Assembly (NCBI GenBank): GCA_964596185.1
Contig: CAZQUE010000020.1
Span: 1 to 58,346 of the forward strand
Direction of reading: 5' to 3'
Length of the DNA: 58,346 nucleotides
Origin: an uncultured bacterium
GTDB lineage: Bacteria; Muiribacteriota; Ozemobacteria; Ozemobacterales; Ozemobacteraceae
How positions within the stretch are numbered: the first letter of the stretch is position 1; the number at the start of each line of letters is the position of its first letter. Shown in pieces: positions 32,501 to 55,100 of this stretch. Both the position numbers and the translations under genes were made by a program. The notes below the pieces were generated by a model. It was not told where the DNA came from and did not search any database. It was given only the letters and a program-made list of their open reading frames with translations.

Positions 32501-32578
32501 GCTTTCAGCAGATGCCACAGCCGAACACAAAAGCAAAACGGCAAGCAGCAACAAACAGGTTTGAAAAAATCTCTTCAT
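26576..32578 (-). CDS. alpha-2-macroglobulin family protein (bacterial A2M, thioester-containing)
   Basis: 2000 aa. Signal peptide. CxEQ thioester motif in context LMEYPHECSEQIFNRIYA. Large size and MG-domain-like beta repeats. GGAGG RBS. Confidence 0.7.
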   Translation of the reverse strand: MKRFFQTCLLLLAVLLLCSAVASAESRSDLWKKVAEAKSKGLPKTAIEHLEPLYQLAVEEGDMTDAVKAMCEKIVMEGNIQGNKPEEKITRLEEEIAKADPKVKPILQIVLAKWYWHYYSRNRYRFLNRSRTEGLSEKDFTTWDLPKLFAHVGDLYENVLKEEKFLKSEPIDQLKGFLEMGNQPLVFRPTLFDFFAHEALFFYMVDDQSSAKPVRAFEVEIDSSAMGTMKEFLAWNPEAFDKDSCNYRAVRLLQRLLQHNLDSDNLDAMLDNDLMRIAWVRRVAVGDDIPAKYIARLEEFANSNSSHAHSAIALGYIAQELYNQNRYVEALSYAEKGLQKHPGSHGASICQNIIDQIKTRALNVESEKVLLPKGSKIKISFRNIDKAHFRLYSRDEETLFRKDQYSPEDIRWDDYERIFSGKYVSEFDADLDPGKEYKSQEAWVDMPEVEPGLYYLAASVRKDFATSGNCLLVTPIMVSKLGMVMRKRHPYTEVFIVNNVSGAPMEGIRVRGYTHEYKKGWRQVLTGTTNKEGIVRFNSTQGGGFFIASHKGHTVYRNYDFHTWDSSPYSSSSQVYLFTDRSIYRPGQTVYFKGIVVRYDTNRNDYQTIRNTKVPISFRDPNYQEVKLENFTTNEFGSFSGSFIAPTDRLTGAYTIQAQSYGGSTRVQIEEYKRPKFKVAIDTPTQSYQLNQVVQMTGHALAYTGAKIDGAQVKYRVVREVRLPPWCWWYFWDNSSSQEIAHGTTVTDKNGEFFIKFNALPDRNIAKDTEPVFHYTVHADVTDSTGETRSSSQIVRIGYTALALGISSPNITEANKDFNVTISTQTLDGKGLPGAGSFLIYALKQPDRAHRRPYSQSALARKTDQSNIQTWEEGQVVFEKSFNSSIDGYFSTPVKLPEGAYRIKAQSRDRYNNPVKAIFNLTVVDYQAKNFTIKVPFFFQTTSGSLQPGDTYKGFWATGYDQGPAYIEVEHRRKLLQAFWTDPKDNKVQIELPITKDMRGGFNIRVMQIKENREYFHVQYVPVEWTNKKLNLKFAHMTSKLQPGQKDTWKIEITGEEAETGAIEMLAAMYDASLDAFAGHNWINGFPFFYRDANWISPTFTNFNTSLYCWRNDLNLYSGVGQRTYPQLPWNIQNDFMNYHFAMRSKSVVMRAGAMPPPSPSMDREEGMMLSEAAAPMAQSAENFADDEVSMEKSSAKKKEGKDAPGGAADKGPGAGDSAPEPDLDKVSARSNLNETAFFFPHLLNDEEGKVTIEFTIPEALTTWKFLGFAHGNNAQAGGLIGETITQKDLMVQPNPPRFLREGDKLRFTAKVTNLSETEQKGKIRLTLQDPISDKNRNDEFKLSENVFEFSVPAGESRGFGWLLDVPYTPGMVKYTVVGATSNLSDGEEGMLPILSSRIFVTESLPLPIKGNEKKKFTFKKLLESKNSKTLAHQGLTVEVTSNPAWYAVQALPYLMEYPHECSEQIFNRIYANQIAAFIANSDKKIKKVFDTWKADEAQGGKALYSNLEKNEHLKSVALLETPWVLDAKNETEQKHKIGVLFDTNRIESEMTRGMKKLSVYQQSDGGFPWFPGGRPNSFITLYIMTGFGRMRHLGVDVNVDMALKSLNYLDNWIDECYREIIRHPGYQKHCNINPTYALYLYGRSFFLKERPIPASSRTAVEFFLDEAREKWLRVGSRLAQGHLALALKRFGDKKVPTDIVNSIRERSVTDEELGTFWRENEISFWWYRAEIETQAVMIELFDEVANDADTVENCKIWMLKQKQTQNWKTTKATADAVYALLLRGADLLASDKLVEVYLGGEMVEPEKVEAGTGYYQKIYAGSEVKSEMGDIQLVKKDAGIAWGAVHWQYLEDMSKVTPHETNLKLKKTLFVKKDTDKGPTITPVKDRLQVGDLLVVRIELRTDRDMEFVHMKDQRGSGMEPTNVISRYKYQDGLAYYEATKDTATHFYIDYLPKGTYVFEYDLRVQHQGVYQSGMAEIQCMYAPEFNSHSESFVIKVTE

Positions 32579-37087: not shown

Positions 37088-38257
37088 CTAAGATGTCAGT
37101 TCGTCGTTCCAGAGGGATTTTAAAAAGTCTTTCCATGGCAGTATTTCAATGCCATCTGCAGTTTTTCTTCTTTGTATGTCAAGAGAAACGACAAGGTATC
37201 TTTTATGAATTCCTTCTTCTTTTAGTGCGCGAAGGCCTTTTAAATGCTTATCCTGAACCATGTGCGTGCCTTTGATTTCAATGGCAATCTCCGTTCCAAG
37301 AACCAGATCAACTTCAAACTGCGAGGTTGAACGCCAATAGTGCATATCGAAATCCTTGCGGCTATAGCTAAGATAAGCACGAACTTCAAGAATTATGAAA
37401 TGCTCGAAGGCATTGCCGAACAATTCGCTTCTGTCCATGATCTCACCTCGGCGGCACAACTGATTTGTCACCCCAAGATCAAAAAGATAGTGCTTGGCCC
37501 TTGAAATAGACTTACGTTTTCGGGTTTTTGTAAACCCCTTCAATGTAAAGCCAATTAATGTATCTTCAAGAATTTGAATATAGTTTTTCAGGGTTCCAGG
37601 CGAGACCTGGCAATCATTTGCCAGACTCTCATAATTAAGCTCTTGCCCATTTGCCAGTGCAATTGCATCAAGAAATTCCGAAAATGCCAGAATATTCCTG
37701 GTTATTGCTTCAGCCTGAATTTCCTCTCTCAGGTAAGTGCTTACATAGTATTTTAATTCCTCTTGAAAGTCGGGTGAGCCATATACCTGGGGAAGACCAC
37801 CACGGTTAAGGTATTGCAACAAATCGAAATCAGGAATTTCCAGATACACCAGCGGGAATAATCTTGCTTCCCATGCTCGACCAGCCAGAAGATTGGCTCC
37901 GCCTCTCTTCAGTTTTCTAGCCGAACTTCCTGTGAGCAAAAATCTGATATTCTTTTTCTGAATCAAGCGCTGAACCTCATCAAGGAGTTGAGGAAGTTTT
38001 TGGATTTCATCAATAACTATGATTTGCGCAGGGTCGCTGATTTCTTCTTCAATCAGTCGGGGGCGTTGTACTAACCTTCTAAAAATTTCATAATCCAGAA
38101 GATCGTATACCTTTGCCTTGGGAAGCTGGGTTTCTATAAGGGTGGTTTTCCCCGTAGACCTCGGCCCTAGCAGGAAAAAGGATTTCTTTTGCAATAAAAG
38201 AGTAAGATCCAAAAGCCTTTTATACACTAAAAACCTCTTCCCAAAAAATTGTTTCAT
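37088..38257 (-). CDS. AAA_14/DUF4143-family ATPase
   Basis: Walker A LLGPRSTGKTTL. Walker B IVIDEIQ. C-terminal DUF4143-like region. Low-GC gene. Confidence 0.7.
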   Translation of the reverse strand: MKQFFGKRFLVYKRLLDLTLLLQKKSFFLLGPRSTGKTTLIETQLPKAKVYDLLDYEIFRRLVQRPRLIEEEISDPAQIIVIDEIQKLPQLLDEVQRLIQKKNIRFLLTGSSARKLKRGGANLLAGRAWEARLFPLVYLEIPDFDLLQYLNRGGLPQVYGSPDFQEELKYYVSTYLREEIQAEAITRNILAFSEFLDAIALANGQELNYESLANDCQVSPGTLKNYIQILEDTLIGFTLKGFTKTRKRKSISRAKHYLFDLGVTNQLCRRGEIMDRSELFGNAFEHFIILEVRAYLSYSRKDFDMHYWRSTSQFEVDLVLGTEIAIEIKGTHMVQDKHLKGLRALKEEGIHKRYLVVSLDIQRRKTADGIEILPWKDFLKSLWNDELTS

Positions 38258-38361: not shown

Positions 38362-39069
38362 CTACTTGAGCTGATCCTTGCGGAAAAAGCCGATCAGAGG
38401 TTTTTTCGCCGGGTCGAGAAAGCCGAGCAGGGTTTGCAGGTGCTTTTTCGGCAGACCCAGACAGCCTGAGGTAGAATTGAAGGCCCGACCCCAGAAGTGA
38501 ATGAAAATGGCACTGCCATGACCAGCAACGACGGGTTTGGTGTTGTATTCGACCACCAGACCCTGCCGATAAAGCTCGTCGCGGCGACGCATGAATTCGT
38601 ATGATTTCGCCATGCTGTCGGCGACCTTCGTCAGGCGGTTGTAATCGGCTGCCGCCGGGTCATCGACCCAGATGTCATCGGCAAACATTTGACGATAAGG
38701 CATTTTTGTCGCGCATTCTTCGTCGTAGCCGAAGGCCAAGCCGATGGGAAAAACGCCGGCAGGGCTCATGCCATCCCCTTCGCGCTTCTCTCCGATATCT
38801 GCGATGCCATTGCGCCCGACCGAGGCTGACATGGGAGGCATGGCGAACTGCCAGACTCCGTTGCTTTTTTCCATGCAATGAACTTCTGCCTTGAATTGAC
38901 CGGGCTTGCCGGTTAAAACAAGAACGAACTGGCCGGCATTGGCCTTGTCAGCGGCAGTCAGAATTTTTTGCCATGAACGCGGGATTCCGCCGGCATGGGC
39001 AGGCACCGCCAGAGCAAAAACCAGCGAGAAAAGCAGCAAAATCGGGGCTATCTCAAAATTAAGCGACAT
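38362..39069 (-). CDS. L,D-transpeptidase (YkuD-like) family protein
   Basis: Signal peptide. Catalytic H-x(n)-S.GC motif (GHGSAIFIHFWGRAFNSTSGCLGL). Confidence 0.6.
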   Translation of the reverse strand: MSLNFEIAPILLLFSLVFALAVPAHAGGIPRSWQKILTAADKANAGQFVLVLTGKPGQFKAEVHCMEKSNGVWQFAMPPMSASVGRNGIADIGEKREGDGMSPAGVFPIGLAFGYDEECATKMPYRQMFADDIWVDDPAAADYNRLTKVADSMAKSYEFMRRRDELYRQGLVVEYNTKPVVAGHGSAIFIHFWGRAFNSTSGCLGLPKKHLQTLLGFLDPAKKPLIGFFRKDQLK

Positions 39070-39393: not shown

Positions 39394-41475
39394 TCAGACC
39401 TTGAAAGAGCGCAGCAGCTCTTCGGCAACACTTTCCGGTACCTCGACATAGTGCAGAACTTCCATCGAGAAGCTGGCACGACCCTGAGAAATCGAGCGTA
39501 AATGAGTTGAATAATTGAACATTCGTGCCAGCGGAACATGGCATTCAACCATGCGCACATCCGCGTTCATCTCCATATTCACGACTTTGCCGCGTCGCGA
39601 ATTGATATTGGCGATGATATCACCGAGGTACTGCTCAGGCGTCTCAATTTTCACCAGCATGCTTGGTTCAAGCAGCACCGGGCCGGCCTTGGGCAAGCCG
39701 CTTTTCATGGCTTCGATCGCCGCGACCTTGAACGCAATAATGCTGCTGTCGACTTCATGAGCCGAACCATCCAGCAGCGTGACCTTAACATCCATGATTG
39801 GATATCCGGCCAGCGGGCCATCCTGCAAGGCATCGCGAACTCCGTCTTCAATCGCGCCATAATAAATTGCCGGCACCGTGCCACCTTTGACGTTGGTTTC
39901 GAAAACGAAACCGCTGCCACGTTCAAGCGGTTCGATTTCCATGATAACGTGCCCGTATTGGCCGCGGCCACCGGTTTGCTTGGCGCATTTGCCTTCGGTC
40001 ATGACTTTTTTACGTATGCCTTCCTTGTAAGCTACCTGCGGAGTGCCGACCAGGGCCTGAACATTGAATTCGCGCAGAATGCGGTCGATGATGATTTCAA
40101 GATGCAGCTCGCCCATTCCCGAAATTAGAGTTTGCCCCGTATCTTCATCGGTAGAGGCTTTGAAAGTCGGGTCTTCTTCCATCAGGGTATGCAGAACCGT
40201 TGACAGTTTGGCAATTTCAGCCTTGCTTTTCGGCTCGATAGACACCGAAATGACGGTTTCAGGGAAGGAAATCTTTTCAAGCACCGGCGCATCCGGGTCT
40301 GTGGCCAGGGTATCGCCGGTCCCGATTTTTTTGGGGCCGATAACCGCAACGATATCGCCGGCTTTGACTTCTTCTTTATCGATGCGTTGATTGGCATGCA
40401 TCTCGAGAATTCGGCCGATACGCTCTTTTCGCCCGCGGGTGACGTTGTAGACCTGACTGCCCGCCGTCAGCGTTCCTGAATAAACGCGCAGATACACGAT
40501 TTTGCCGATGTGGGGCAGGGCGGCGACCTTGAAAGCCATTGCCATGAAAGGGGCGTTGGGGTCGCAATCGATGGCGAACTGCTCGTCGTCGTGCTGGCTA
40601 AAGGCTTTGGCCGGGGGAATTTCTAGGGGAGATGGCAGAAAATGCACGATCGAATCGAGAAGTGCCTGAACCCCCTTGTTTTTAAATGCTGTACCGCAGA
40701 GTACTGGAACAATCTGATTGTTGATCGTTGCCTTGCGAATCGCAGTGCGAATAAGTTCGGGCGCAATTTCCTCTTCGGCAAGAAACTTTTCCATCAGCGC
40801 ATCATCGTAACAGCAAAGGTTTTCGAGCATTTCTTCGCGGGCATTCAGTGCTTTTTCGACCATGTCGGCGGGAATCTCGACGGTGATTACATTTTTCCCG
40901 AGCAGATCTTCTTCAGTCGGCAGACCGACCCGGGCCTGCATCTCGATCAGATCGACGTGACCCTGATATTGGTCTTCGGCCCCGATTGGTAGGGCTATCA
41001 TCAGCGGTGTCGCGTTCAGGCGCTCTTTAATCTGCTCGACGACCCGGTTGAAGTTGGCACCGACCCGATCCATTTTGTTGATAAAGGCTATTCTCGGAAC
41101 TTCATAGCGGTTGGCCTGGCGCCAGACCGTTTCTGACTGGGGCTGCACGCCGGCAACCGCGCAGAAAACCACGACACAGCCATCAAGAACTCTTAATGAT
41201 CTTTCCACCTCGGCGGTAAAATCGACATGGCCGGGGGTATCGATAATGTTGATTTCGGAATCGAGCCAATGACACTTGGTTGCGGCGCTGGTAATGGTAA
41301 TGCCGCGCTCCTGCTCCTGTATCATCCAGTCCATGGTGGCGGCACCGTCGTGAACTTCGCCGATCTTGTAATTGCGCCCGGTATAATAGAGAATTCGTTC
41401 GGTTGTCGTTGTTTTGCCGGCGTCGATATGAGCGATGATGCCGATGTTGCGAACGCACTTGGCTTCCGTGTTCAT
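39394..41475 (-). CDS. fusA: elongation factor G (stand-alone paralog, not in an str operon context)
   Basis: G-domain motifs AHIDAGKTT and DTPGHVDF. 693 aa. Domain IV/V motifs present. No rpsL/rpsG/tuf neighbours. Confidence 0.85.
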
Positions 41476-41743: not shown

Positions 41744-44700
41744 ATGAATGAATATGAATTTGATCAGGAAACGGGGACTGAACCGAGTAAAGAAAATGAG
41801 CTAATTAAAGCCCATATTTTGCCAAAAATTAATTTTGCGATTCAGCAATCTGATGTGTCACTAATTCAACGCGTTTCTCTTGAGAATCCCAACTCTGAAA
41901 AGTTGGAAAATCTTGTGGTTACAATTGAATCCGAGCCGGAGTTTTTTCCAAGATGGCAAAAGCAGATTCCGGTATTGGAAGGGAAAAGCTCTGTCTGTAT
42001 AAATGAGCCCGATTTGAAGCCTGGTTCGGATTTTATGGTCAGGCTCGCAGAGAGATTAAAGGGCAAGATTAATATCAGTCTCGCCAATGGTTCCATGATT
42101 TCTCAAGTTTCAAATGAATTAGAAATTCTCGCCTATAACGAATGGCCTGGCGCCAGAATTGTTCCTGAATTACTCGCTGCATACATTTTACCCAATTCAT
42201 CGGTTGTCGAAAAAATTCTTATGAATAGCCTCGAAATCCTTAAAGGCTGGGGTGACAATTCAGGCCTGACGGGTTACCAGGAAAAAGACGGGAAAAAGGT
42301 TCTCAGAGTTGCTGCCGCCATCTTCAATTCTGTATGCATGCTTGGACTTAATTATGCTGTTGCCCCGGCAAGTTTTGAAGATCACGGTCAGAAAATTCGT
42401 TTTCCTGAAAAAATTGCTGAAAGTTTGTTAGGAAACTGTCTTGATTTGTCGCTGCTTTTAGCCGGTTGCCTTGAAAGCGCCGGCATCAATCCAATCATCA
42501 TTTTTACTGAAGGGCATGCTTTTGTCGGTTTCTGGCTAAAAGACGAAAGTTTCCCTTTAAGCTGGCTGGATGAAGTTTTACCATTGAAAAAACGAGTTGA
42601 GCTGGGTGAAATATGTGTTTTTGAAACGACCGTTTTAACAGGCCCCGGTGGCGATTTTGATACGGCCAGAAGCATTGCTGAAAACAAACTGTCAGAAAAT
42701 GATTTTGTCGGTTTGCTCGATGTAAAAAGAAGTCGCTCACACAACATCAGACCATTGCCGGTGACCTTTAAAGACGGCAAAGTTCAGTTTAAAGCCGATT
42801 TTGTCGTGTCAAAGGAAACTGAAGCCATTCAGAAATTTTTACCTCCTAAGGAAACTGACATAATTGTTGCCGAGAGCGGGGAAAAAGAAAAAAAGACCGA
42901 AAGCCGCATAGATCAATGGAAAAGGAAACTGCTTGATCTTACCTTGCGCAATCGATTACTAAATTTCAAAGAAACTAAAAAGAGTTTGCGAATTCTTACA
43001 CCCTCATTAGGTAAGCTTGAAGATATGCTTGCCGATGGTAAAGAGATTCAGATCAAGGCAATTCCGGACAACATTCTTGGTGGACGCAGCAGAAGTTTGT
43101 TTCTTGAGAATACCGGCAAAGATCTCATAAGCGAGTTTCTTAACAAAGAGTTTCAACAGCATAGAATTTATTCTGATCAAACAGAAAACGAATTGTCGAA
43201 AGGCCTTACGGAAATTTATCGAGAGGCTAGAAATACACTTCAGGAAGGTGGCGCAAATACCTTATTTTTGGGCGCTGGTTTTTTAAATTGGTATGAATCT
43301 GATACCAGCGATTTAAAGCGCTGTGCGCCAATCATTCTGATTCCGCTGGAAATACGAAGGAATTCCGTTCAGGAAGGTTTTCGTATTTGTCAAAGAGATG
43401 AAGAGGCGCAGATAAATGTAACCCTTCTCGAGCTTCTGAAAACCGACTTTGGCCTTGATATTAAGGGGCTTGATCCGCTGCCGTTAGATGATCACGGCAT
43501 TGACCTGGATAAGATTCTGAACACTTTCAGGCGGGCCATCCTTAACATTAGCCGTTGGGAGGTCACTGAAGATTCTTTTGTCGGTTTGTTTCATTTTCAG
43601 AAATTCCTGATGTGGAAAGATCTTGAAAGTAGAACTGATAAACTTCTTGATAACCCGGTTGTTAATCATCTGGTAAATGGTTCTGATCAAAGCTTTCCCG
43701 TTCAGGGCGATTTTCCGATTGCGCAGGAGCTTGATCAAAAATATTCATTAAAAGAGACATTTTGCCCGCTTAGCGCCGATAGCTCACAATTGGTTGCCGT
43801 TCATTCGGCTGCACTTGGCAGAAGCTTCGTGTTGCACGGGCCACCAGGCACAGGCAAGTCGCAAACCATTACCAATATCATTGCTCACAGTATCGCGACG
43901 GGAAAAACTGTTTTGTTTGTTTCTGAAAAGGCTGCCGCACTGAATGTGGTCTATAAAAGACTGTCGAATATCGGTCTGGCACCATTTTGTCTTGAACTTC
44001 ACTCCAATAAGAGCAGCAAGTCTGAGGTGCTGAAGCAGCTTAGCGATGGTTTGAATGCATCTTTTTCCATAAACGATCAAGAATGGGTAGATCAAGCCAG
44101 GCAGCTTGAACAACTTCGTTCAGAACTTAATCAGGTGGCTGACTTGCTTCACAGGGTTCACCCCCTGGGAATATCTCTTTTTCAGGGGATCGGTAAGGTT
44201 TCCTCTCTTAAGGATATGCCGTCAGTTGAATTGAACTGGAATAATTATCTGGAAATTTCAAAAGAACGATTGGAAAAAGTTCTCGATAATCTGCAGCGCC
44301 TGAAAATAACCGGTAAAGCATTTGCAAGTTCTGAAAACAATCCCTGGCAAGGCACCACTGTCATTGAATGGACAATGTCTCTGAACACTGAAATAGAAAA
44401 ACTTGCCCATTCCCTGGAGGAGCAATCTTCGCAGCTGGAAAGCCTTTTTCAACAATTGTCAAAAGATTTGCCCGGCTTGAAAAGGCCGGAGAATTTAGCC
44501 GAAATCAGTCATATTGGAAATTACTTTGAAAATCTTGTCAAGCTCAAAACTGATTCAACGAAGTTGCTAACCAATACCGATTGGGAACCGGCAAGAAAAA
44601 AGTTAGAAAATCTGATCGAGATTGGTCTGGAGTTTACCAGGCTTAGAGATTTAATTTTTGAAACTTTTTCACCCGAGTTCCTTGGTCAGGATCTTGCTTC

Positions 44701-47638
44701 TTTTCACCGAGACTGGAAGCTTGCTTGTGATAGTTGGTGGCCAAAATCCTGGTTTGCCAAAAGAACCATTTTCAATGAAATTTGCCAATTCCTGAACCAT
44801 GGAAAAAATATCGATAAAGAGCAACTCGACAGTCTTCTTTCGCAGGGTGTTGCTGCTAAAGAGAAACTGGCGGCAATCAAGGATAACGGCGATTTCGCTC
44901 TGGAGTGTATTGGTTCACTCTGGGAAAATGAGAATTCTGATTGGAGCTTAATAAGATCTGAACTAGAATTGATAGACAAGCAAAAATTTTGCTTGAAAAT
45001 TCTCAGTCGCAAGGACGCTGCCGAGTTTAAAAGAATAAATGAAATGGTTTTGCATCATTTCGCGACAGTTAAAGCAATGAAGGCAGTTGATTCAGAAACC
45101 TTGAATGTTTGCTTGAAATTCAAAGTTGCTTCTGCCAATCTGATTAGTAGCGCAGAAACAATTTTTGAAAAATTGAAATTCAGTGCACCAGATACTCATG
45201 AAGATTTTTTCGATTTCTTGAAGAATCTTGGTCGAACCTGGCGCAAAAACACAGATACTTTACGAAGCTGGAGCCTGTTCAATAAAACCATTGCCGAAGC
45301 CGAAGAAAACGGTTTGCCTGAAATAATCAAAGCCCTTGAAGAAAAGGAATTTGGTTTGGATGTTGCTGATAAGGTTTTTGAAAAAAGTTTTTTCAAAAGT
45401 TGGACGGCCGAGTTGATTGATCAACATTCTGAACTTAGAGACTTTTCGGGTGAAATTCATAACAGTAGAGTTGAAAAATTTCAGGAGATCGACGAAAAAT
45501 TTCTGGCTTCGACCCGCAAAGTTCTGGTCAGCAGATTGGCCGAAAAAATACCACAAAATGGGCAAAATGCCGTCGGAAACTCTGAGATGGGCATTCTCAA
45601 CCGCGAAATAAGAAAAAAACGCCAACACAAGCCCCTGAGAATTTTGTTCCAGGAGACCTCCAACCTTTTGCCCAGGCTCAAGCCGTGCTTTTTAATGAGT
45701 CCTCTTTCTGTAGCCCAATATCTTTCGACTGAACAGCCTCTGTTTGATCTGGTAATTTTCGATGAGGCCTCGCAGATGCCGGTATGGGATGCAATCGGTG
45801 CCATTGCCCGTGGGAAAAACCTTATTGTGGTGGGCGACCCCAGGCAATTGCCGCCCACGAGCTTCTTCAGCAAGTCAGAAGGCTCAGACTGGGAAGAGGC
45901 CGAATTTGTCGAAGACCTTGACAGTATTCTTGAAGATTGTCTGGCAGCCGGTTTGCCCAGTCTCTACCTGAACTGGCACTACCGAAGTCTCCACGAATCT
46001 CTAATCGCATTCAGCAACTTTAATTATTATGACAATCGGCTTCACACTTTCCCTTCAGCTTATTTTGAGGGCTTGGGGCTTAACCTTGTCCATGTTAAAG
46101 AAGGTATTTACGACAAAGGCAAATCCAGAACGAATAGAATCGAGGCTGAGCGCATCGTGGCCCATATTGTAAAGCGGTTGAAAGATCCGGCATTGAACGT
46201 TTTTTCAATCGGTGTCGTTACTTTCAATGCCAGTCAGCAAAGTCTCATTGAAGATCTGCTCGACGAAGAAAGAAGAAAGAGCCCGGAGATTGAGCCTTTT
46301 TTCAGCGAAAACAATTCGGAAAGCCTTTTTGTAAAAAATCTTGAAAATGTTCAGGGTGATGAACGTGATGTCATCATATTTTCAATTTGTTATGGCAGAG
46401 ATTTAAATGGCCGAATGAGTATGAATTTTGGTCCTGTAAACAAGGCCGGTGGTGAAAGACGACTTAACGTTGCCGTGACCAGAGCTCGTCGCGAGGTTCT
46501 GGTTTTTTCTTCAATCTTGCCTGATGAAATTGATCTTTCACGAACCAGAGCGATTGGTGTCAAACATCTTAAGTCTTACCTCGATTTTGCCAGAAGAGGC
46601 GAACAGGCAATTAAAGAAACCATCTCCGAATTTAATCAGGAGCTTTATGATTCGCCATTTGAAAAAGAAGTTGCAGAGGCATTGAGGCAAAAAGGTTTTG
46701 AAGTTCACACCCAAATTGGTTGCTCTGGTTATAAAATTGATCTTGCGGTTGTTCACCCGGAATACCCCGGCAGATACCTTCTCGGCATAGAATGTGACGG
46801 TGCGGCCTATCATTCCGCTAAATGTGCCCGCGAAAGAGACAAATTGCGTCAATCTGTTTTAGAAAGCCTGGGCTGGAAATTGCATCGGGTCTGGTCGACT
46901 GACTGGTGGCATGATTCTTCAAGAGAGGTTGAAAAAACGATAAAAAAGATCGAAGATGTTTCGAAAGAGCCACTTGCCGAGTTTGCGTCGATCAGTCCGG
47001 TAGCAGAAAAAGAGCGGGTTGTTGATTTTTCTGCACCATTCGAAAGTAGCTATTTGAATAACCAACCAACTAATCCCTTTGAAAAGTCATACACTGAATG
47101 GCGACCTTCTGAAAGTTTATTCAACTCCGATCAATTCTATTCCTCAGTTTATGACTACAGAATCAAAAAACTGATTTCAGAGATTGTCAATTTTGAAGGT
47201 CCGATAACCTTAACAAATCTTACCAGAAAGGTTTGTACGCAATTTCAAATCAGTCGGGCCACACAAAAGGCTCAGCATAGAATCGAGACTTTAGCCAGGG
47301 GCTGCGGCGGAATTTCTCAAGAAATATACAATAACCAGCTTTCATACTGGCCGGAAACCCTGACAATTTCAGATTACAGAGAGTTTCGAAAAAATACCGA
47401 CACGGCTTCAAGAAAAGCAGAAGATATACCGCATCAGGAAGTGGCTGTTGCGGCATTCTCTGTTCTAAGTGAAAATATAAGCATTGAAATTCCTGATCTG
47501 GTAAGGGCTACCGCAAATTGCTTCGGCTTTTCAAGAGTAGGCCAGAATGTTGAAGGCTCAATGCTTGTTGGCATTGAATACATGATCCAAAACTTTCCGG
47601 TGAATAAAGAAGGCGAAAGAGTTGTCTGCACCCAATAG
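41744..47638 (+). CDS. giant DNA-helicase-related protein: transglutaminase-like N-domain + DUF4011 + SF1 (Upf1-like AAA_11/AAA_12) helicase + DUF3320 + DUF559/REase_MTES_1575 endonuclease-like C-terminus
   Basis: 1964 aa. Cys/His/Asp transglutaminase-like core (GNCLDLS...EGHAFVGF). Walker A GPPGTGKSQT. Motif II/III region VVGDPRQLPP. Motif V/VI NVQGDERDVIIFS..NVAVTRAR. C-terminal GIECDGAAYHS...RD..R...L...GW...RVWSTDW. Confidence 0.75.
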   Translation: MNEYEFDQETGTEPSKENELIKAHILPKINFAIQQSDVSLIQRVSLENPNSEKLENLVVTIESEPEFFPRWQKQIPVLEGKSSVCINEPDLKPGSDFMVRLAERLKGKINISLANGSMISQVSNELEILAYNEWPGARIVPELLAAYILPNSSVVEKILMNSLEILKGWGDNSGLTGYQEKDGKKVLRVAAAIFNSVCMLGLNYAVAPASFEDHGQKIRFPEKIAESLLGNCLDLSLLLAGCLESAGINPIIIFTEGHAFVGFWLKDESFPLSWLDEVLPLKKRVELGEICVFETTVLTGPGGDFDTARSIAENKLSENDFVGLLDVKRSRSHNIRPLPVTFKDGKVQFKADFVVSKETEAIQKFLPPKETDIIVAESGEKEKKTESRIDQWKRKLLDLTLRNRLLNFKETKKSLRILTPSLGKLEDMLADGKEIQIKAIPDNILGGRSRSLFLENTGKDLISEFLNKEFQQHRIYSDQTENELSKGLTEIYREARNTLQEGGANTLFLGAGFLNWYESDTSDLKRCAPIILIPLEIRRNSVQEGFRICQRDEEAQINVTLLELLKTDFGLDIKGLDPLPLDDHGIDLDKILNTFRRAILNISRWEVTEDSFVGLFHFQKFLMWKDLESRTDKLLDNPVVNHLVNGSDQSFPVQGDFPIAQELDQKYSLKETFCPLSADSSQLVAVHSAALGRSFVLHGPPGTGKSQTITNIIAHSIATGKTVLFVSEKAAALNVVYKRLSNIGLAPFCLELHSNKSSKSEVLKQLSDGLNASFSINDQEWVDQARQLEQLRSELNQVADLLHRVHPLGISLFQGIGKVSSLKDMPSVELNWNNYLEISKERLEKVLDNLQRLKITGKAFASSENNPWQGTTVIEWTMSLNTEIEKLAHSLEEQSSQLESLFQQLSKDLPGLKRPENLAEISHIGNYFENLVKLKTDSTKLLTNTDWEPARKKLENLIEIGLEFTRLRDLIFETFSPEFLGQDLASFHRDWKLACDSWWPKSWFAKRTIFNEICQFLNHGKNIDKEQLDSLLSQGVAAKEKLAAIKDNGDFALECIGSLWENENSDWSLIRSELELIDKQKFCLKILSRKDAAEFKRINEMVLHHFATVKAMKAVDSETLNVCLKFKVASANLISSAETIFEKLKFSAPDTHEDFFDFLKNLGRTWRKNTDTLRSWSLFNKTIAEAEENGLPEIIKALEEKEFGLDVADKVFEKSFFKSWTAELIDQHSELRDFSGEIHNSRVEKFQEIDEKFLASTRKVLVSRLAEKIPQNGQNAVGNSEMGILNREIRKKRQHKPLRILFQETSNLLPRLKPCFLMSPLSVAQYLSTEQPLFDLVIFDEASQMPVWDAIGAIARGKNLIVVGDPRQLPPTSFFSKSEGSDWEEAEFVEDLDSILEDCLAAGLPSLYLNWHYRSLHESLIAFSNFNYYDNRLHTFPSAYFEGLGLNLVHVKEGIYDKGKSRTNRIEAERIVAHIVKRLKDPALNVFSIGVVTFNASQQSLIEDLLDEERRKSPEIEPFFSENNSESLFVKNLENVQGDERDVIIFSICYGRDLNGRMSMNFGPVNKAGGERRLNVAVTRARREVLVFSSILPDEIDLSRTRAIGVKHLKSYLDFARRGEQAIKETISEFNQELYDSPFEKEVAEALRQKGFEVHTQIGCSGYKIDLAVVHPEYPGRYLLGIECDGAAYHSAKCARERDKLRQSVLESLGWKLHRVWSTDWWHDSSREVEKTIKKIEDVSKEPLAEFASISPVAEKERVVDFSAPFESSYLNNQPTNPFEKSYTEWRPSESLFNSDQFYSSVYDYRIKKLISEIVNFEGPITLTNLTRKVCTQFQISRATQKAQHRIETLARGCGGISQEIYNNQLSYWPETLTISDYREFRKNTDTASRKAEDIPHQEVAVAAFSVLSENISIEIPDLVRATANCFGFSRVGQNVEGSMLVGIEYMIQNFPVNKEGERVVCTQ

Positions 47639-47764: not shown

Positions 47765-47809
47765 TGTAGTAACGACATTTTTGTAAATTTAAGTTGAGTG
47801 ATTCGGTTA

Positions 47810-48400
47810 ATGAAAATCAAGCTGAAAAAGATGGCAGATGTCCAGACCGGCTATTCGTTTCGGGGTCGAATCGAGCCCGATTCTGCCGGCGGCTTGGCGG
47901 TCATTCAAATGAAAGACCTGCAGGCTGATAACACCGTAGATTTTTCGAGCCTGACGATGGTCGATATGTCTGACGTAAAGTCTCATCACCTTGTTGAATC
48001 GGGTGACCTTGTCTTTAGATCGCGTGGTCTGGAAACTTCGGCCGCAATTGTTTTAGCAAGCCCAGGCCAGGCGATAGTTTCGGCCCCGCTATTGAGAATC
48101 AGGGTTAAGAAAACTGCAAAAATTTTGCCCGAATATCTGAACTGGTATTTGGCTCAGACCCTGGCGCAGGCCTATTTCAACAGTTACGCGATCGGTACTG
48201 CTCAGAAAATCATTAACAAAGAAGTCCTTGAAGAACTTGAAGTCTTCGTCCCGCCTTTGAAATTGCAGAAAAAAATCGTTGAACTGGCTGCTTTGGCTGA
48301 ATCAGAAAAAATGCTCGTCGAGGCAATAACCCGAAAAAGAAAACAATACGTTGCAGCGCTGCTGATGCGTGCTGTAAAAGGAGAAGCAGATGAACGCTAA
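47810..48400 (+). CDS. hsdS: type I restriction-modification specificity subunit, half-size (single TRD plus central conserved helix)
   Basis: Begins like an HsdS TRD (MADVQTGYSFRG). Ends with the conserved VFVPPLKLQKKIVE...LV block. ~197 aa. Stop overlaps the hsdM start. The GTG at 47798 or the ATG at 47831 are alternative starts. Confidence 0.6.
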   Translation: MKIKLKKMADVQTGYSFRGRIEPDSAGGLAVIQMKDLQADNTVDFSSLTMVDMSDVKSHHLVESGDLVFRSRGLETSAAIVLASPGQAIVSAPLLRIRVKKTAKILPEYLNWYLAQTLAQAYFNSYAIGTAQKIINKEVLEELEVFVPPLKLQKKIVELAALAESEKMLVEAITRKRKQYVAALLMRAVKGEADER

Positions 48401-49958
48401 AATTGATCAAAAAGACATAAACAACGCCGCCTGGGCCGCTTGCGACACTTTTCGCGGCGTGGTCGATCCGGCACAGTACAAAGACTACATTCTAGTCATG
48501 CTTTTTCTTAAGTATATTTCCGATGTCTGGCAGGACCACTATGAAACCTACCGTCAACAATACGGTGAAGATGATGTAAGAATCAGGCGCAAGCTTGAGC
48601 GCGAGCGTTTTGTGCTGCCGAATATCAAACTAACCGAAAAGAATGAAAAAACAGGTGAAGAAGCTGTTCTAGATGAGTTTCCGGCAACTTTTTATGCGCT
48701 TTACGAACGTCGTTCCGAGCCTAACATCGGCGAGCTGATCAATATCGTTCTCGATCATATTGAAGAAGCCAACAAAAGCAAGCTTGAGGGCGTTTTTAGA
48801 AATATTGACTTCAACAGCGAGGGCAATCTTGGCAAGACCAAAGACCGAAATCGTCGCCTCAAACAATTGCTTGAAGATTTCCACAAACCCCAGCTCGATA
48901 TGAAACCGAGTCTGGTTGCCGAAGACGTTATCGGCAATACCTATATCTACCTAATCGAAAGATTTGCTTCTGATTCGGGAAAAAAGGCTGGCGAATTCTT
49001 TACGCCGCTCAAGGTTACTGAGCTTGTCGCCATGCTTGCTGCGCCGAAAACGGGCGATCGAATCTGCGATCCGGCCTGCGGCTCGGGCGGGCTTTTGATT
49101 CAGGCTGCTCGGCAGGTCGGCGACCGGGATTTCGCTCTTTTCGGTCAGGAATCAAATGGCAGCACCTGGGCCCTTTGCCGCATGAACATGTTTCTTCACA
49201 GTTTTGACAGTGCCAGGGTCGAATGGTGCGACACTCTCAACAGTCCGTTGCTGGTTGAAAATGATCGATTGATGAAATTCAATTGCGTTGTTGCAAATCC
49301 GCCTTTTTCGCTTGATAAATGGGGGGCTGAAAACGCCGAAAGCGACCAGTATAATCGCTTCTGGCGTGGTGTGCCGCCGAAGAGTAAGGGTGACTGGGCT
49401 TTTATCAGTCACATGGTTGAGGTCGCCATTGAAAAAGCCGGTCGGGTGGCAGTGGTAGTGCCGCATGGGGTGCTGTTCAGAGGAGCCGCCGAAGGGCGAA
49501 TTCGTCGCAAAATGATTGAAGAAAACCTGCTCGATGCCGTCATCGGTTTGCCCGGCAATCTGTTTCCGACAACTAATATTCCCGTGGCTATCCTGGTATT
49601 CGATCGGGCCCGCGAAAAAGGCGGCGCACGAGAATCCTGCAAAGATGTTATTTTTATCGACGCCAGCTCTGAATTTACCCCCGGCAAAAATCAGAACACC
49701 CTGTCTGATGAGAACCTCGAAAAGATCATGACCACTTTCAAAGCTCGCAGGGAGGTCGAAAAATATGCCCATCTGGCAACGTTTGAAGAAATTAAAGAGA
49801 ATGACTTCAATCTTAATATTCCGCGTTATGTTGACACCTTTGAAGAAGAAGAAGAGATCGATATCGACGCGGTTCAGCTTGAAATAGAACAGCTCGAGAA
49901 AGAGCTGGCCGAAGTGCGTCTGCAGATGGCTGAAAAAATCGCTCAGATCGAGCGGTAG
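48390..49958 (+). CDS. hsdM: type I restriction-modification DNA methyltransferase subunit (N6-adenine)
   Basis: HsdM N-domain. AdoMet motif I DPACGSGG. Motif IV NPPFS. C-terminal acidic coiled coil. Confidence 0.85.
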   Translation: MNAKIDQKDINNAAWAACDTFRGVVDPAQYKDYILVMLFLKYISDVWQDHYETYRQQYGEDDVRIRRKLERERFVLPNIKLTEKNEKTGEEAVLDEFPATFYALYERRSEPNIGELINIVLDHIEEANKSKLEGVFRNIDFNSEGNLGKTKDRNRRLKQLLEDFHKPQLDMKPSLVAEDVIGNTYIYLIERFASDSGKKAGEFFTPLKVTELVAMLAAPKTGDRICDPACGSGGLLIQAARQVGDRDFALFGQESNGSTWALCRMNMFLHSFDSARVEWCDTLNSPLLVENDRLMKFNCVVANPPFSLDKWGAENAESDQYNRFWRGVPPKSKGDWAFISHMVEVAIEKAGRVAVVVPHGVLFRGAAEGRIRRKMIEENLLDAVIGLPGNLFPTTNIPVAILVFDRAREKGGARESCKDVIFIDASSEFTPGKNQNTLSDENLEKIMTTFKARREVEKYAHLATFEEIKENDFNLNIPRYVDTFEEEEEIDIDAVQLEIEQLEKELAEVRLQMAEKIAQIER

Positions 49959-49975
49959 ATTCCGGGAGGTATTAC

Positions 49976-50860
49976 GTGAACAGGAAACTAATAAACAATC
50001 ACTATCAGACATTTGAGGATATAAAACAAACCAACGGCCAGGGTGAAGAATTCTGGCTGGCAAGGCCACTGGCAAGGATTCTTGAATACTCTGATTTTCG
50101 AAATTTCCTTCTCGTTATCGAAAAAGCACAGCAGGCGTGCAAAAACAGTGGCCAGGCGGTTAAGAACCATTTCGTTGAAATCACCGAAATGGTCAATCTC
50201 GGTTCAGGAGCTGAACGCGAAGTTAAATCTTTTGCATTGTCGCGCTATGCCTGTTATCTGATCGTTCAGAACGGCGACCCGACCAAGCCGGTCATTGCTA
50301 ACGGGCAGACATATTTTGCCATTCAGACCCGCCGCCAGGAGCTCGCCGACAACGAAGCTTTTCAGCGCCTCAAAGAAGATGAAAAGCGGCTTTTTCTGCG
50401 TAATGAAATGCGCGAGCATAACAAGCAGCTGGTTGAAGCCGCTCAGCAGGCCGGCGTAAAAAGCAATCTCGATTTTGCCGTCTTTCAGAATCATGGTTAT
50501 AAAGGGCTTTACGGCGGCCTCGATGCCAAAGGCATTCATGCCAGAAAAGGGTTGAAAAAGAGTCAGAGCATTCTCGACAACATGGGCAGCACCGAACTTG
50601 CCGCCAATCTTTTCCGCGCCACGCAGACCGAAGAAAAACTGCGCCGTGAAAACGTTCAAGGCAAATTGCAGGCCAACCAGACCCACTATGCAGTCGGCAA
50701 AAAGGTTCGCCAGACCATCGAAGAATTAGGTGGCACCATGCCCGAAGACCTGCCAACCCCCGAAGAAGACCTGAAAAAACTCGAACGCCGCACCAGATCT
50801 TCAGATAAAAAGCTGACCAGTTCTGGAAATGCCCCAGAAACCCCGGAGAATGAAGAATGA
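49976..50860 (+). CDS. DinD-like (DNA-damage-inducible protein D family) protein inserted in the hsd operon
   Basis: GGGAGG RBS and GTG start. N-terminal TFEDIKQTNGQGEEFWLARPLARILEYSDFRNF...KAQQACKNSG matches my recollection of the E. coli DinD N-terminus. This family is commonly found between hsdM and hsdS. Confidence 0.5.
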   Translation: MNRKLINNHYQTFEDIKQTNGQGEEFWLARPLARILEYSDFRNFLLVIEKAQQACKNSGQAVKNHFVEITEMVNLGSGAEREVKSFALSRYACYLIVQNGDPTKPVIANGQTYFAIQTRRQELADNEAFQRLKEDEKRLFLRNEMREHNKQLVEAAQQAGVKSNLDFAVFQNHGYKGLYGGLDAKGIHARKGLKKSQSILDNMGSTELAANLFRATQTEEKLRRENVQGKLQANQTHYAVGKKVRQTIEELGGTMPEDLPTPEEDLKKLERRTRSSDKKLTSSGNAPETPENEE

Positions 50861-52020
50861 AAGAAAGTCTTCAGAATTTAAAAACAGTGCTAGGAAAAAT
50901 TGCAGAAATTTCTTCTGGAGGGACACCAGCAAGGGGTGTTCCTGAGTATTGGAATGGCAACATTCCATGGGTTAAAACTACTCAAATTCAAAATTGCCAA
51001 ATTTTTCTGGAGAGCGTTGATGAGTGGATTACTCAGAACGGTTTGAAGAATTCATCGGCAAAAATAATACCAGCAGGCACAATTCTTATGGCTATGTATG
51101 GCCAGGGAAAAACCAGAGGCCAAGTAGGTATACTGGCTTTTGATGCTGCTATAAACCAAGCTTGTGCCGCAATAGAGTTAAAGGGCAATGTTGATCGAGA
51201 TTTTATTTTTCAATCATTATTAGCAAATTATAAAAAAATACGAGCTATAAGCAATGTTGGTGGGCAAGAAAATTTGAGTGCAGGCTTGATAAAAGAGATT
51301 CCGATCTATCTTCCAAAACTTACAGAACAAAAAGCCATTGCCGATCTCCTTTCAACCTGGGACAAAGCCATCGAAAAAACCGAACGCCTGATCCAGGCAA
51401 AAGAAAAGCGTTTTAAGTGGTTGTTACGAGAGTTGATTTTCGAAGCTCAGAAGGTCCAGAAAAACACAGAATGGAAAAAGTTGAAATTGGGGGAAATTTG
51501 TAAGTTATATCAACCCCAAACTATCTCCAAAGAGGATATGTGCCAAACAGGGCCCTTCAAAGTGTTTGGAGCCAATGGCGTAATTGGTTTTTATGAAAAG
51601 TATAATCATGAAGAACCAGAAATTGCTATTACCTGCCGAGGAGCAACATGCGGAACTATAAATATAACAGAACCTAAAAGTTGGATTACAGGAAACGCGA
51701 TGATTGCCCAACCAAATGAAAAGAAAATGCTGAAGAATTTTCTTTATTACTCACTTTTGGTTGCCAATATGAAATCAGTAATCTCTGGTGCTGCACAACC
51801 GCAGATAACGAGGCAAGATTTAGCCCCTTTAAATGTCTTGGTTCCTCCTTTGGAGAGCCAAAAACAAATTGCTGAAACATTGTCTTTTTCTCAAAATGAA
51901 ATCGATCTGCTGAAACAGCTGGCAGAAAAATACAAAACACAAAAGCGCGGGCTAATGCAAAAGCTACTAACCGGCCAATGGCGGCTTAAGTCCGAAATTA
52001 TTAATAGATTCAAGGAGTAG
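50857..52020 (+). CDS. hsdS: type I restriction-modification specificity subunit (full length, two TRDs), low-GC
   Basis: Two TRDs. Each is followed by a conserved block (IPIYLPKLTEQKAIADLL and NVLVPPLESQKQIAETL). ATGA overlap with the dinD-like stop. ~38% GC versus ~50% for hsdM. Confidence 0.8.
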   Translation: MKESLQNLKTVLGKIAEISSGGTPARGVPEYWNGNIPWVKTTQIQNCQIFLESVDEWITQNGLKNSSAKIIPAGTILMAMYGQGKTRGQVGILAFDAAINQACAAIELKGNVDRDFIFQSLLANYKKIRAISNVGGQENLSAGLIKEIPIYLPKLTEQKAIADLLSTWDKAIEKTERLIQAKEKRFKWLLRELIFEAQKVQKNTEWKKLKLGEICKLYQPQTISKEDMCQTGPFKVFGANGVIGFYEKYNHEEPEIAITCRGATCGTINITEPKSWITGNAMIAQPNEKKMLKNFLYYSLLVANMKSVISGAAQPQITRQDLAPLNVLVPPLESQKQIAETLSFSQNEIDLLKQLAEKYKTQKRGLMQKLLTGQWRLKSEIINRFKE

Positions 52021-52117: not shown

Positions 52118-55100
52118 ATGAAAATAAAAAATGGATCATCTGATACAAAACTTCTTGCAAGCGGTGGTGGAGATGGAACAGCAATAGGGGTTAAGTTTCA
52201 GTCTGAGATTGGTGCAGTATTTCTTACCAATCTTTTGGCAGAAGTTTCTTTGGATAGAAGATTATTTTTGAAAGAAACTAAAGCGCTGATTCTACGCTTT
52301 GAAACTGAAGCTCCAATAGATGATATTCTTGTAGAGACCGATGAAGGTGGCTTTATTGCAATTCAAGCTAAGGCAAATTTGAACTCTTCAAAAAATATTG
52401 ACAGTGAGTTTGGAAAAACTATTAAGCAAATTGCCCGACATTACTTTGCTTGCAAACAAGACACTAATGTATATGGTTGGGATCGAACAAATGATTTAAA
52501 TAAAGACAGATTTCTTATTGCTGTTGGTGAAAAAACCTCGGGGATGATTCGGCATCATTTGCGCGAGGGTTTAAATGCCAGGAGGCAAACTCTAATTGGC
52601 GAAAAAGCGAAATTTACCAAAAAACAAAAAGAAGCTTTAAGTAATTTTGATTGCTGTTTAAAAAAAGCGTGGGAGTCAATTACTTCAGATCCTTTCAATG
52701 ATCAAGTTAAAAAGGAAATTTCTTGCCTTACTGTAATAATTTCTTATGACATTGAGGGTAGTGAGAGAGCAGCCTTAATTCAGCTACTGAAACCGTTAAT
52801 TTTAGATAGAACAAAGCCGGAGATTGTTCTGGAACTTTTGGCTGGTTTTTCCATTGATATGATGGCAGCAAGGTCTAGTATAAACAATCAGTTTTTAAGG
52901 AGATTTCTTTCTCAAAAAGGCATTTCTGTAGATGCTTTAGAAAAATTTAGAGAAGACATTAAATCTCTAAAAAAATATTCAGATAAAGTGCAGCATATTC
53001 TTTCAAGATATGAATCAATCGAAAATACCGAGAATGAAATGGTAAAAATTTCAAGGACTTGTCAGAAGAATTTGATTGAATCGATTCTTAACGGTTCATT
53101 GCTCATTATTGGTGAGCCTGGTTCTGGCAAGAGTGCGGCAATAAATGTAGCTAGTCGAGAGCTTAAAGAGCTGGGGCACGATGTTGTTGAGCTTGCTGTT
53201 GATCAACTTCCAGTAAATTCTTTAGAAGGGTTGGCATATGAATTAGCTATAGACAATTCATTTGTTGAAGTGCTTAACAATTGGGAAGGTGAGAAACCAG
53301 GTTTTGTGATGATAGATGCTCTTGATGCTACTAGGGGTGGATCTAATGAAGCTGTTTTTCGAACCTTGATTTCAAATGTGATTTTATCTAATTCTCGCTG
53401 GCGTATTGTTGCGTCAATACGAGTTTTTGACTTAAAACTTGGACAGCAATTTCAAAGCTTATTCAAAGGGGAACCTCCAGATAAATTATTGCAAGATCCT
53501 TTATTCCCAAGAGTTCGCCATGTAAAAATTCCTATTTGGCAAAAGGAAGAGATGCAGGAATTACTTGCAAAGTTTCCTGCCCTTAAGCTGGCCTTAGAAA
53601 ATGTACCCGAAAGGGTTCGAGAGCTGGCAACAGTGCCTTTTAATACTAAATTATTTGCCGATCTGCTTTCAAGCGGAATAGAGTCAGATGAGTTTGTTAA
53701 GATTTATACTCAAGCGGAGTTATTGCAACTTTATTGGAATTGTAAAATTTCTTCCTTGGGCGAAGCTGGGAATGTACAGCTTCGAAAAATTGTTTCAGTT
53801 ATGGTGAATGAAAGAACCTTGAGGGTTTCAAAGCAAAAAGTGATTGATCATGATCCATCAATTTTACAAGCCTTGTTCCAAAAAGGTGTACTAGCTTCAA
53901 TTGGAAATGATAGATATTTAAGTTTCAGACACCACATTCTTTTTGATTTTGTTGCGAGCAAGGTTTATCTGGATTTAGATGATATTAAATCTGGAAAAGC
54001 TATTTTTTACAAAAAAGATGCTTTAGGCTTAATGTTAGGGCCAGCTTTTTCATTCCTTTTGGAAGAACTTTGGTTGTTAGATGATTCTCGCGATGATTTT
54101 TGGAAAGCGGCGTTTTTTATTCTTGGGCAAGATCTTTATGATCCTGTAATAAAAAGTTTGATTTCTAGATTGGCTTCCGAGTTATCACAAAACTATTCAG
54201 ATTTAGAATTCTTGGCAAAATCTATTAAAGAGGGGAATGAAAAATCTAAGGAAGTATTAAAGCAGATAATTGGTTCCCTTATAGTGAAGCTCGAAGATCA
54301 ACAAGCAAATAGCGTGTCGCATTGGACAAAATTTTTAGCCAACATTGTAGAAGCGACCGATTTTGTTTTTTGGGAAATGAAAAATCTGTCATATCTATTA
54401 ATTGATAGGGTAAATTGCCAAAAAGATCTTGAAAATATTGGAATTGCAGCTCGGGCCCTTTTAAATTTTTCCTTTTCAAAAAATCAAATGATTCCAGAGT
54501 TAATAGCATCTTCAATAGAACTCGTAGCCAAAACTTATTCTACAGACGAAAGGGCATCTAGAAGACTTTTAGAAAAAATTTTTGCAGAAAGTAGATTTCA
54601 AGAATTTGGACCGATTGAAGTGCCTGCTTTAACTGAAAATATAAGTTCTGTGGCTAAAACGGATATCGATTTTGTAGTTGAAATTTTTAGAAACGTTTTT
54701 CGATTAGAAATACAAAATGATAAACCAACTCCTATGGGGAGCAGCCAAATTTTGCCCCTGGTTTCAAATACTCGACAGGATTTTGAGATGGCTCGTTATT
54801 CTCTTGAGGTTTTTTTTCCATCTTTTTTAGAATCTTACCCGGAAGAAGCGACTAAAGCATTAATTCACTCAATTGAGGGCTTTTTTTTGCGGAAGCATAG
54901 TGAGTTAAATGGTGGAAAGACGGTCGGGATTAAAACACCAAGTGGAAATGTTACATTAAAAGAAGATATGAGCTGCTATTGGGCACCAGATCCATATGAT
55001 AATTATAATATGGATGCTATGACTCTATTAAAAGAGTTTACAGATAAATTGGAAACATTGCCGGCAAATAAGTGTATGCAAATTGTACAGATGGTAATTT

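Follow-up and report, generated by a model that had tools for sequence, protein, structure and literature searches.

A single open reading frame (ORF) of 1,964 codons, open throughout and complete, occupies positions 41744 to 47638 on the forward strand of contig CAZQUE010000020.1, a 58,346-nucleotide stretch of DNA (the window, here taken at its full length) from an uncultured bacterium of the Ozemobacteraceae. A preliminary description of this DNA had presented the gene as a protein of a functionally uncharacterised helicase family to which an extra N-terminal domain and a nuclease domain had been added. The locus raises the question of whether the gene is an unusual new fusion or belongs to a known family, and of what the encoded protein may do. 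To judge by its sequence, the gene is a full-length and regular member of the already catalogued ProA family, and no unusual new fusion. The reading we favor, with a probability of roughly 80%, is that its product is an anti-phage protein of that family which acts alone as one polypeptide, consists of a PDC-S37 core and an N-terminal module, and is related to Hhe.

Assignment to the ProA family

The profile that carries the assignment is the NCBIfam equivalog NF058533, 'anti-phage protein ProA', which aligned over its entire length (profile positions 1-1903 of 1903) with residues 30-1931 and gave 2,135.3 bits, compared with a curated cutoff of 1,500 bits. The family is thus already catalogued, under a curated anti-phage name. 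The boundary of the ProA profile was probed by scanning five relatives from other genomes. Two that have the N-terminal domain scored 2,156 and 2,223 bits, both from profile position 1, while a third, more divergent one matched profile positions 1-1708 only and, at 1,426 bits, fell slightly below the cutoff. The remaining two, which start at DUF4011, matched only positions ~351-1903 and were narrowly above the cutoff at 1,512-1,638 bits. Since relatives without the N-terminal domain miss profile positions ~1-350, the ProA profile includes the N-terminal module. The window protein contains this module (profile positions 1-~355) and is matched from position 1, indicating that the protein is a mainstream, complete member. 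It shares the whole architecture and length with ProA, no structural difference was seen, and residues K705, D1340/E1341, D1666, E1683 and D1685 are intact.

A second match was obtained with the PADLOC model PDC-S37, a single-gene candidate without a conserved neighbour, which covered residues 383-1958 (profile positions 4-1542 of 1550) with 1,402.9 bits. The two share the core of DUF4011, helicase, MTES_1575 nuclease and DUF3320. However, the PDC-S37 profile omits the N-terminal beta-sandwich and transglutaminase-like module and fits the forms of ~1,400-1,680 residues that start at DUF4011. PADLOC also returned a partial match to Hhe (623 bits) and weaker matches to MkoA and MkoC. Membership in Hhe itself was considered and rejected, because NCBIfam NF042953 gave 871.9 bits against its cutoff of 2,000 bits and only residues 1157-1752 align well. 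The relationship to Hhe (Gao et al. 2020) lies in a shared single-gene plan, a DUF4011 superfamily 1 (SF1) helicase with a Vsr-like nuclease, and the alignment takes in the nuclease together with the latter half of the helicase (residues ~1157-1752). Hhe was reported to protect E. coli against lambda, T3, T7 and PhiV-1, and the substitution E1731A in its Vsr domain abolishes defence (bioRxiv 10.1101/2022.06.16.496414).

The architecture proved to be common. A word-indexed search returned 918 relatives at E<=1e-50, and among the matches listed, which represent many phyla, nearly all have 1,950-2,050 residues and align over 97-100% of the query. When the N-terminal domain (residues 1-385) was used as the query in an exhaustive HMMER search, 3,724 representatives of 50%-identity clusters were found, 823 of them at E<=1e-30; most of the representatives bearing the domain are ~1,950-2,050 residues long. 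Proteins covering at least 80% of the query are encoded by 62 plasmid records. Counts of related loci given here and below refer to the 80 best genome loci, 56 of which encode the form with the N-terminal domain (~1,950 residues) and 21 the form of ~1,400-1,680 residues that starts at DUF4011. As the layout running from the N-terminal domain to DUF3320 is the commonest among the relatives, the N-terminal and nuclease domains that had been called extra are the normal state of the family. No similarity at the DNA level was detected in E. coli genomes.

The N-terminal slot is occupied differently in some relatives. Further N-terminal add-ons, among them TerD (PF02342) and VRR-NUC (PF08774), or a much greater length were observed in the relatives P0112, P0131 and P0054 and at the loci L003 (5749-13758) and L063 (9260-16423), with proteins of 2,669 and 2,387 residues. 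These variants suggest that the N-terminal slot is modular on a constant helicase-nuclease chassis.

The sequence itself is new. The nearest full-length database protein among the matches listed is metagenomic and 74% identical, a partial protein from Candidatus Riflebacteria, also among those matches, is 84% identical, and the exact protein sequence is absent from the contig index that was searched. The architecture, on the other hand, has been known for more than a decade. Anantharaman, Makarova, Burroughs, Koonin and Aravind described in 2013 giant proteins combining HEPN, a transglutaminase-like peptidase, an SF1 helicase, a Vsr-family restriction endonuclease and two winged helix-turn-helix domains that overlap DUF3320; these have no modification subunits and were predicted to be defence proteins (PMC3710099). 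The window protein shares with these MTES_1575-type giants the transglutaminase-like domain, the SF1 helicase, the Vsr domain and the two winged helices, whereas the additional N-terminal HEPN RNase is theirs only. A possible tie between ProA and the DefenseFinder system 'Prometheus' is an unconfirmed guess from the name; Prometheus is reported to be common in Pseudomonas, and P. aeruginosa has a large DUF4011 gene in its core genome (PMC10250203). The gene in the window, which probably stems from a Riflebacteria-like organism, adds one more divergent sequence to a family of single-gene anti-phage helicase-nucleases that is very large and has a name already.

Domain architecture and catalytic residues

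The open frame and the Pfam matches confirmed the 1,964-residue ORF with DUF4011, an SF1 helicase and DUF3320 that had been described at the outset, and the protein contains both of the motifs cited there, GNCLDLSLLLAGC...EGHAFVGF and GIECDG..YHS. All domains described below are encoded on the forward strand.

DUF4011 itself (positions 42926..43438, residues 395-565) matched Pfam PF13195 over the complete profile (1-158 of 158) with 161.4 bits. The first RecA-like domain of the helicase starts at 43778..44170 (residues 679-809; Pfam AAA_11, AAA_19 and AAA_30) and contains the Walker A sequence GPPGTGKS at 43838-43861 (residues 699-706). The AAA_11 match as such spans residues 679-907, extending partially into a weakly conserved insertion of ~480 residues (44171..45613, residues ~810-1290) that has no Pfam match after residue 907. 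The mean column conservation of this insertion is 0.35-0.47, compared with 0.7-0.8 in the motor. The second part of the motor follows at 45614..46510 (residues 1291-1589), with the Walker B sequence DEASQ at 45761-45775 (residues 1340-1344), the motif VGDxxQLPP at residues 1363-1371 and AAA_12 at residues 1394-1589 (69.9 bits). Motifs I, II, III and VI are present in AAA_11 and AAA_12, as in Upf1-like SF1 helicases. Residues G699-S706 including K705, the stretch D1340 E1341 A1342 S1343 Q1344, residues G1538-R1541 and R1573/R1580 were found to be invariant in alignments of 49-105 homologues. A search of PDB sequences with the full protein returned generic SF1 helicases only, the nearest being IGHMBP2, Sen1 and Upf1.

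The nuclease is a Vsr-like PD-(D/E)xK domain at 46658..46951 (residues 1639-1736), which matched Pfam MTES_1575 with 130.6 bits against a cutoff of 38.2. The model of residues 1595-1964 had a predicted local distance difference test score (pLDDT) of 87, and the modelled nuclease fold matched the structures of Vsr, I-Bth0305I and DUF559 proteins. Among 105 sequences, D1666 and D1685 show no variation and E1683 occurs in 96. The nuclease had been assigned earlier to a Vsr/DUF559 type. The Vsr-like part of that assignment is supported by the MTES_1575 score, the fold and the conserved residues, but DUF559 itself remained below threshold (18.1 vs 20.6 bits), the related MTES_1575 being the significant model. 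The position given for the domain has to be corrected as well: it does not follow DUF3320 at the C terminus but precedes it (DUF3320, residues 1796-1842). About 230 residues lie C-terminal of the nuclease domain, including two winged-helix-like domains at 47123..47635 (residues ~1794-1964), the first of which overlaps the Pfam DUF3320 match. Judged by these conserved residues, the ATPase/helicase motifs of a Upf1/Dna2-like SF1 motor and the Vsr-like nuclease site are intact.

The N-terminal part of the protein was less readily assigned. Pfam contained no model that matched residues 1-390 of the window protein alone (E<=1), and the gathering scores of Transglut_core and DUF553 were not reached. 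When 13 sequences with the N-terminal domain were examined, however, seven matched Pfam DUF553 ('transglutaminase-like domain') and five Transglut_core. These matches were all sub-threshold (17-20 bits vs cutoffs of 20.5-23), and all of them span the stretch containing a conserved Cys and His. A profile built from the 13 sequences found nothing among PDB sequences at E<=10. An AlphaFold2 model of the N-terminal module, computed from 58 sequences, had a mean pLDDT of 89.4 and a predicted template modelling score of 0.85. In the model, a beta-sandwich at residues 21-128 is followed by an alpha/beta domain at residues ~135-350 and then by a disordered linker. Foldseek matched the model to TG2 and FXIII with E ~3e-4, with the caveat that these ~100-residue matches to animal transglutaminases may partly reflect their own beta-sandwich domains; single-domain matches are cleaner for the core. 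On the DNA, the Ig-like beta-sandwich corresponds to 41804..42127, the transglutaminase-like core, of the papain-like Cys-His-acid type, to 42146..42793, and the low-confidence linker (residues ~351-390; pLDDT <50 at residues 353-385; conservation 0.35) to 42794..42913.

An alignment of 105 sequences showed that C232 and H258 are invariant and that position 294 is acidic in every one (Glu in 79, Asp in 26). The codons of this proposed triad lie at 42437-42439 (Cys232), 42515-42517 (His258) and 42623-42625 (Glu294). In the model, C232 is at the N terminus of the helix 232-245, H258 at the start of the strand 258-264, the second strand after that helix, and E294 directly past the strand 290-293, so that cysteine, histidine and acid follow each other in the order that is canonical for papain-like and transglutaminase folds. 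Transglutaminase-fold enzymes such as PNGase, TglA, PeiW and the animal transglutaminases have the same fold, with the Cys at a helix N terminus and the His and acid on later strands, and in the animal enzymes, as in the window protein, a beta-sandwich comes before the core. The differences are that the sequence similarity to these enzymes is marginal and that the third residue of the triad is mostly Glu in the ProA-type family. Because the structure model, the weak but recurrent Pfam hits in homologues and the residue conservation agree, the domain at residues ~135-350 is judged to be transglutaminase-like and probably catalytic. The preliminary description had proposed a transglutaminase-like core here and had named an absence of any similarity to that fold as the result that would speak against it; the model, its fold matches and the invariant triad point instead to such a similarity. 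The N terminus differs from that of the Hhe/MTES_1575 type, which is a HEPN domain: Pfam found no HEPN domain anywhere in the protein, and the modelled N terminus is a beta-sandwich and a transglutaminase-like core instead.

Proposed mechanism and alternative explanations

The general interest of the family is that one protein combines a motor and a nuclease with winged helices that bind DNA and with a conserved cysteine-enzyme module, and that neither a methyltransferase nor a partner gene accompanies it. When 942 neighbouring ORFs were clustered all-against-all, no family was common to more than 8 of the 80 loci. A conserved partner gene was rejected on these grounds, the largest cluster (8/80 loci) being an ABC ATPase (for example L005, 8160-9377) and the others housekeeping genes. 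The recurrent neighbour families at the 80 loci also contained no dedicated methyltransferase partner. The lack of a conserved partner or methyltransferase, together with the gaps on both sides of the gene in the window, indicates that the gene is a single-gene unit and that the type I restriction-modification (R-M) operon adjacent to it in the window is separate.

In the favored reading, the ProA-family protein would act independently of DNA modification. The winged helices, and perhaps DUF4011, would bind invading or aberrant DNA, ATP hydrolysis would power translocation or unwinding, and the Vsr-like domain would nick or cut nucleic acid and so stop phage replication. The transglutaminase-like module could be a regulatory or sensing arm, acting through self-processing or by cutting a phage protein and thereby licensing the nuclease, or else a second, protein-directed effector. 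Most likely, the module would be a catalytically active cysteine peptidase or isopeptidase. A similar division of labor was put forward in 2013: the winged helix-turn-helix domains recognise invading DNA, the DNase acts on it, and the transglutaminase domain cleaves protein as a further line of defence (PMC3710099).

A defence role for the gene, as proposed earlier, is supported by the ProA score above the cutoff, the PDC-S37 match, the partial Hhe match and the adjoining type I R-M and PDC-M54A/B genes. Several points weigh against this reading. The anti-phage function would derive from a curated database label and from the related Hhe, and the primary paper naming ProA was not located in the literature search. 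Many relatives are flanked by housekeeping genes. In P. aeruginosa, a gene with DUF4011 belongs to the core genome of all isolates, an unusual distribution for mobile defence, the link to the window gene being the DUF4011 domain only (PMC10250203). Finally, Upf1-like motors act on both DNA and RNA, so that either may be the substrate, and the protein may attack the phage genome or kill the cell.

The association of the family with defence islands was evaluated at 32 loci by scanning 123 close neighbours with PADLOC, without a baseline. Defence genes were scattered among them: reverse transcriptases, PycC, ATPases of the GajA, AriA and Old types, PDC-S06 and HEC-01A. The scan includes likely false positives, since the 'mad3' matches are probably ABC ATPases. 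As 'mad3' seems to pick up ABC-type ATPases and an ABC_tran family forms the largest neighbour cluster, PADLOC-only counts of defence neighbours are probably inflated. In the window, a putative generic ABC-type ATPase encoded at 17659-19284 on the reverse strand gave a 'mad3' match of 177 bits. With scattered defence neighbours and many relatives flanked by housekeeping genes, the association across the family looks moderate, not strict. At one locus (L082, Candidatus Riflebacteria contig JAAYYO010000063.1), a 46%-identical relative has downstream, at 15971-17395, a small ORF and one gene with HTH_3 and Peptidase_M78 domains (ImmA/IrrE-like), and upstream a two-component system, with nothing in common with the window neighbourhood.

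The more specific proposal was considered that the transglutaminase-fold module, as an active enzyme directed at protein, senses infection or acts as the switch that licenses the helicase-nuclease; it would cleave or modify a phage protein or process the polypeptide itself at the linker (residues ~351-390). This is a tentative idea and we consider it rather doubtful. If it were true, one polypeptide would couple protein recognition to nucleic-acid destruction, and, unless the matter is already settled in the ProA literature, the family would be a compact model for restriction gated by a protease.

Among the explanations that compete with a selective anti-phage enzyme, abortive infection survives best, and even this was judged unlikely. 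According to this explanation, the transglutaminase-like peptidase or an indiscriminate nuclease harms proteins or nucleic acids of the host when infection is sensed, rather than phage DNA being destroyed selectively. The invariant Cys-His-acid triad, which indicates selection on the module for enzyme function, would be consistent with it, as would the absence of a methyltransferase partner marking self DNA. Moreover, suicidal back-up activities were proposed in 2013 for the accessory domains of the HEPN-bearing relatives (PMC3710099). However, the requirement for a Vsr nuclease residue in Hhe defence and the layout of helicase, nuclease and winged helices, which resembles that of DNA-targeting restriction-like enzymes, count against it, as does the lack of any conserved partner gene for toxicity or immunity.

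The possibility was also considered that the protein is a housekeeping helicase-nuclease of DNA repair or genome maintenance, with a role like that of Dna2 or AddAB, which by chance lies beside defence genes. The recurrent neighbours of the relatives are indeed of a housekeeping nature (ABC ATPase, tryptophan genes, ComEC, HolA, DisA, IMPDH, Dus and a histidine kinase), and Vsr itself is a repair enzyme. The large DUF4011 core gene of P. aeruginosa, which flanks a defence hotspot, likewise favors this explanation (PMC10250203). Nevertheless, this explanation is very unlikely. The curated cutoff of an anti-phage equivalog was passed and PADLOC defence-candidate models match; the GC content of the gene departs from that of the upstream housekeeping region, and R-M and PDC-M54 genes adjoin it. 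Furthermore, the N-terminal modules of the relatives are swappable (transglutaminase-like, none, HEPN in Hhe, TerD or VRR-NUC), which is typical of conflict systems.

That the gene supplies the missing motor and nuclease subunit of the adjacent type I R-M operon, which lies 159 bp downstream on the same strand with the order hsdS', hsdM, dinD, hsdS and no HsdR found in the window, is most improbable and was rejected, because the motor here is SF1 and Upf1-like whereas HsdR of type I systems belongs to SF2 (ResIII/DEAD), no R-M family is conserved as a neighbour in the 80 loci, the gene is preceded by a long AT-rich stretch of its own, and hsdR may lie beyond the window end.

Neighbouring genes in the window

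The ProA-family gene opens a defence island in the window. The left border of the island is a divergent gene for elongation factor G (EF-G; 39394..41475, reverse strand; TIGR00484, 980 bits) with a GC content of ~0.50-0.52. The two genes are separated by an AT-rich gap of 268 bp, and a gap of 159 bp follows the ProA-family gene. A scan for promoters and terminators found no more sites than in shuffled sequence. The GC content is ~0.50 upstream of the gene, drops to 0.42 within it and reaches 0.36 where the window ends. The placement of the gene at an island boundary in the preliminary description was roughly right, with EF-G on the left and lower-GC defence genes extending rightward to the end of the window.

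Downstream, a half-size hsdS is followed by hsdM, a dinD-like gene and a full hsdS, after which come PDC-M54A and the beginning of PDC-M54B. The type I R-M operon (47798-52020, forward strand) has an unusual layout in that its first hsdS encodes only 200 residues and the dinD-like gene is embedded between M and S. The dinD-like gene matched NCBIfam DinD with 484 bits and PADLOC PDC-S13 with 412 bits. No hsdR was seen within the window, and it may lie past the window end.

The operon is followed by a gene for a 1,630-residue protein (52118-57010, forward strand) that matched PADLOC PDC-M54A over its full length with 1,760 bits and had zero Pfam or NCBIfam matches. PDC-M54B (57007-58346, forward strand; 455 bits) overlaps it and is partial, since it runs off the window end. 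This two-gene defence candidate has a GC content of 0.35-0.36. Arguably, these neighbours, the dinD gene within a type I R-M operon and PDC-M54A/B, are less understood than the ProA-family gene.

Upstream, a second giant ORF (26576-32578, reverse strand) encodes 2,000 residues and had no PADLOC match. A DUF4143/AAA_14 ATPase of the PDC-S01 type is encoded at 37088-38257 on the reverse strand, on the other side of EF-G from the island, and an L,D-transpeptidase-like gene is located at 38362-39069, beyond the EF-G gene.

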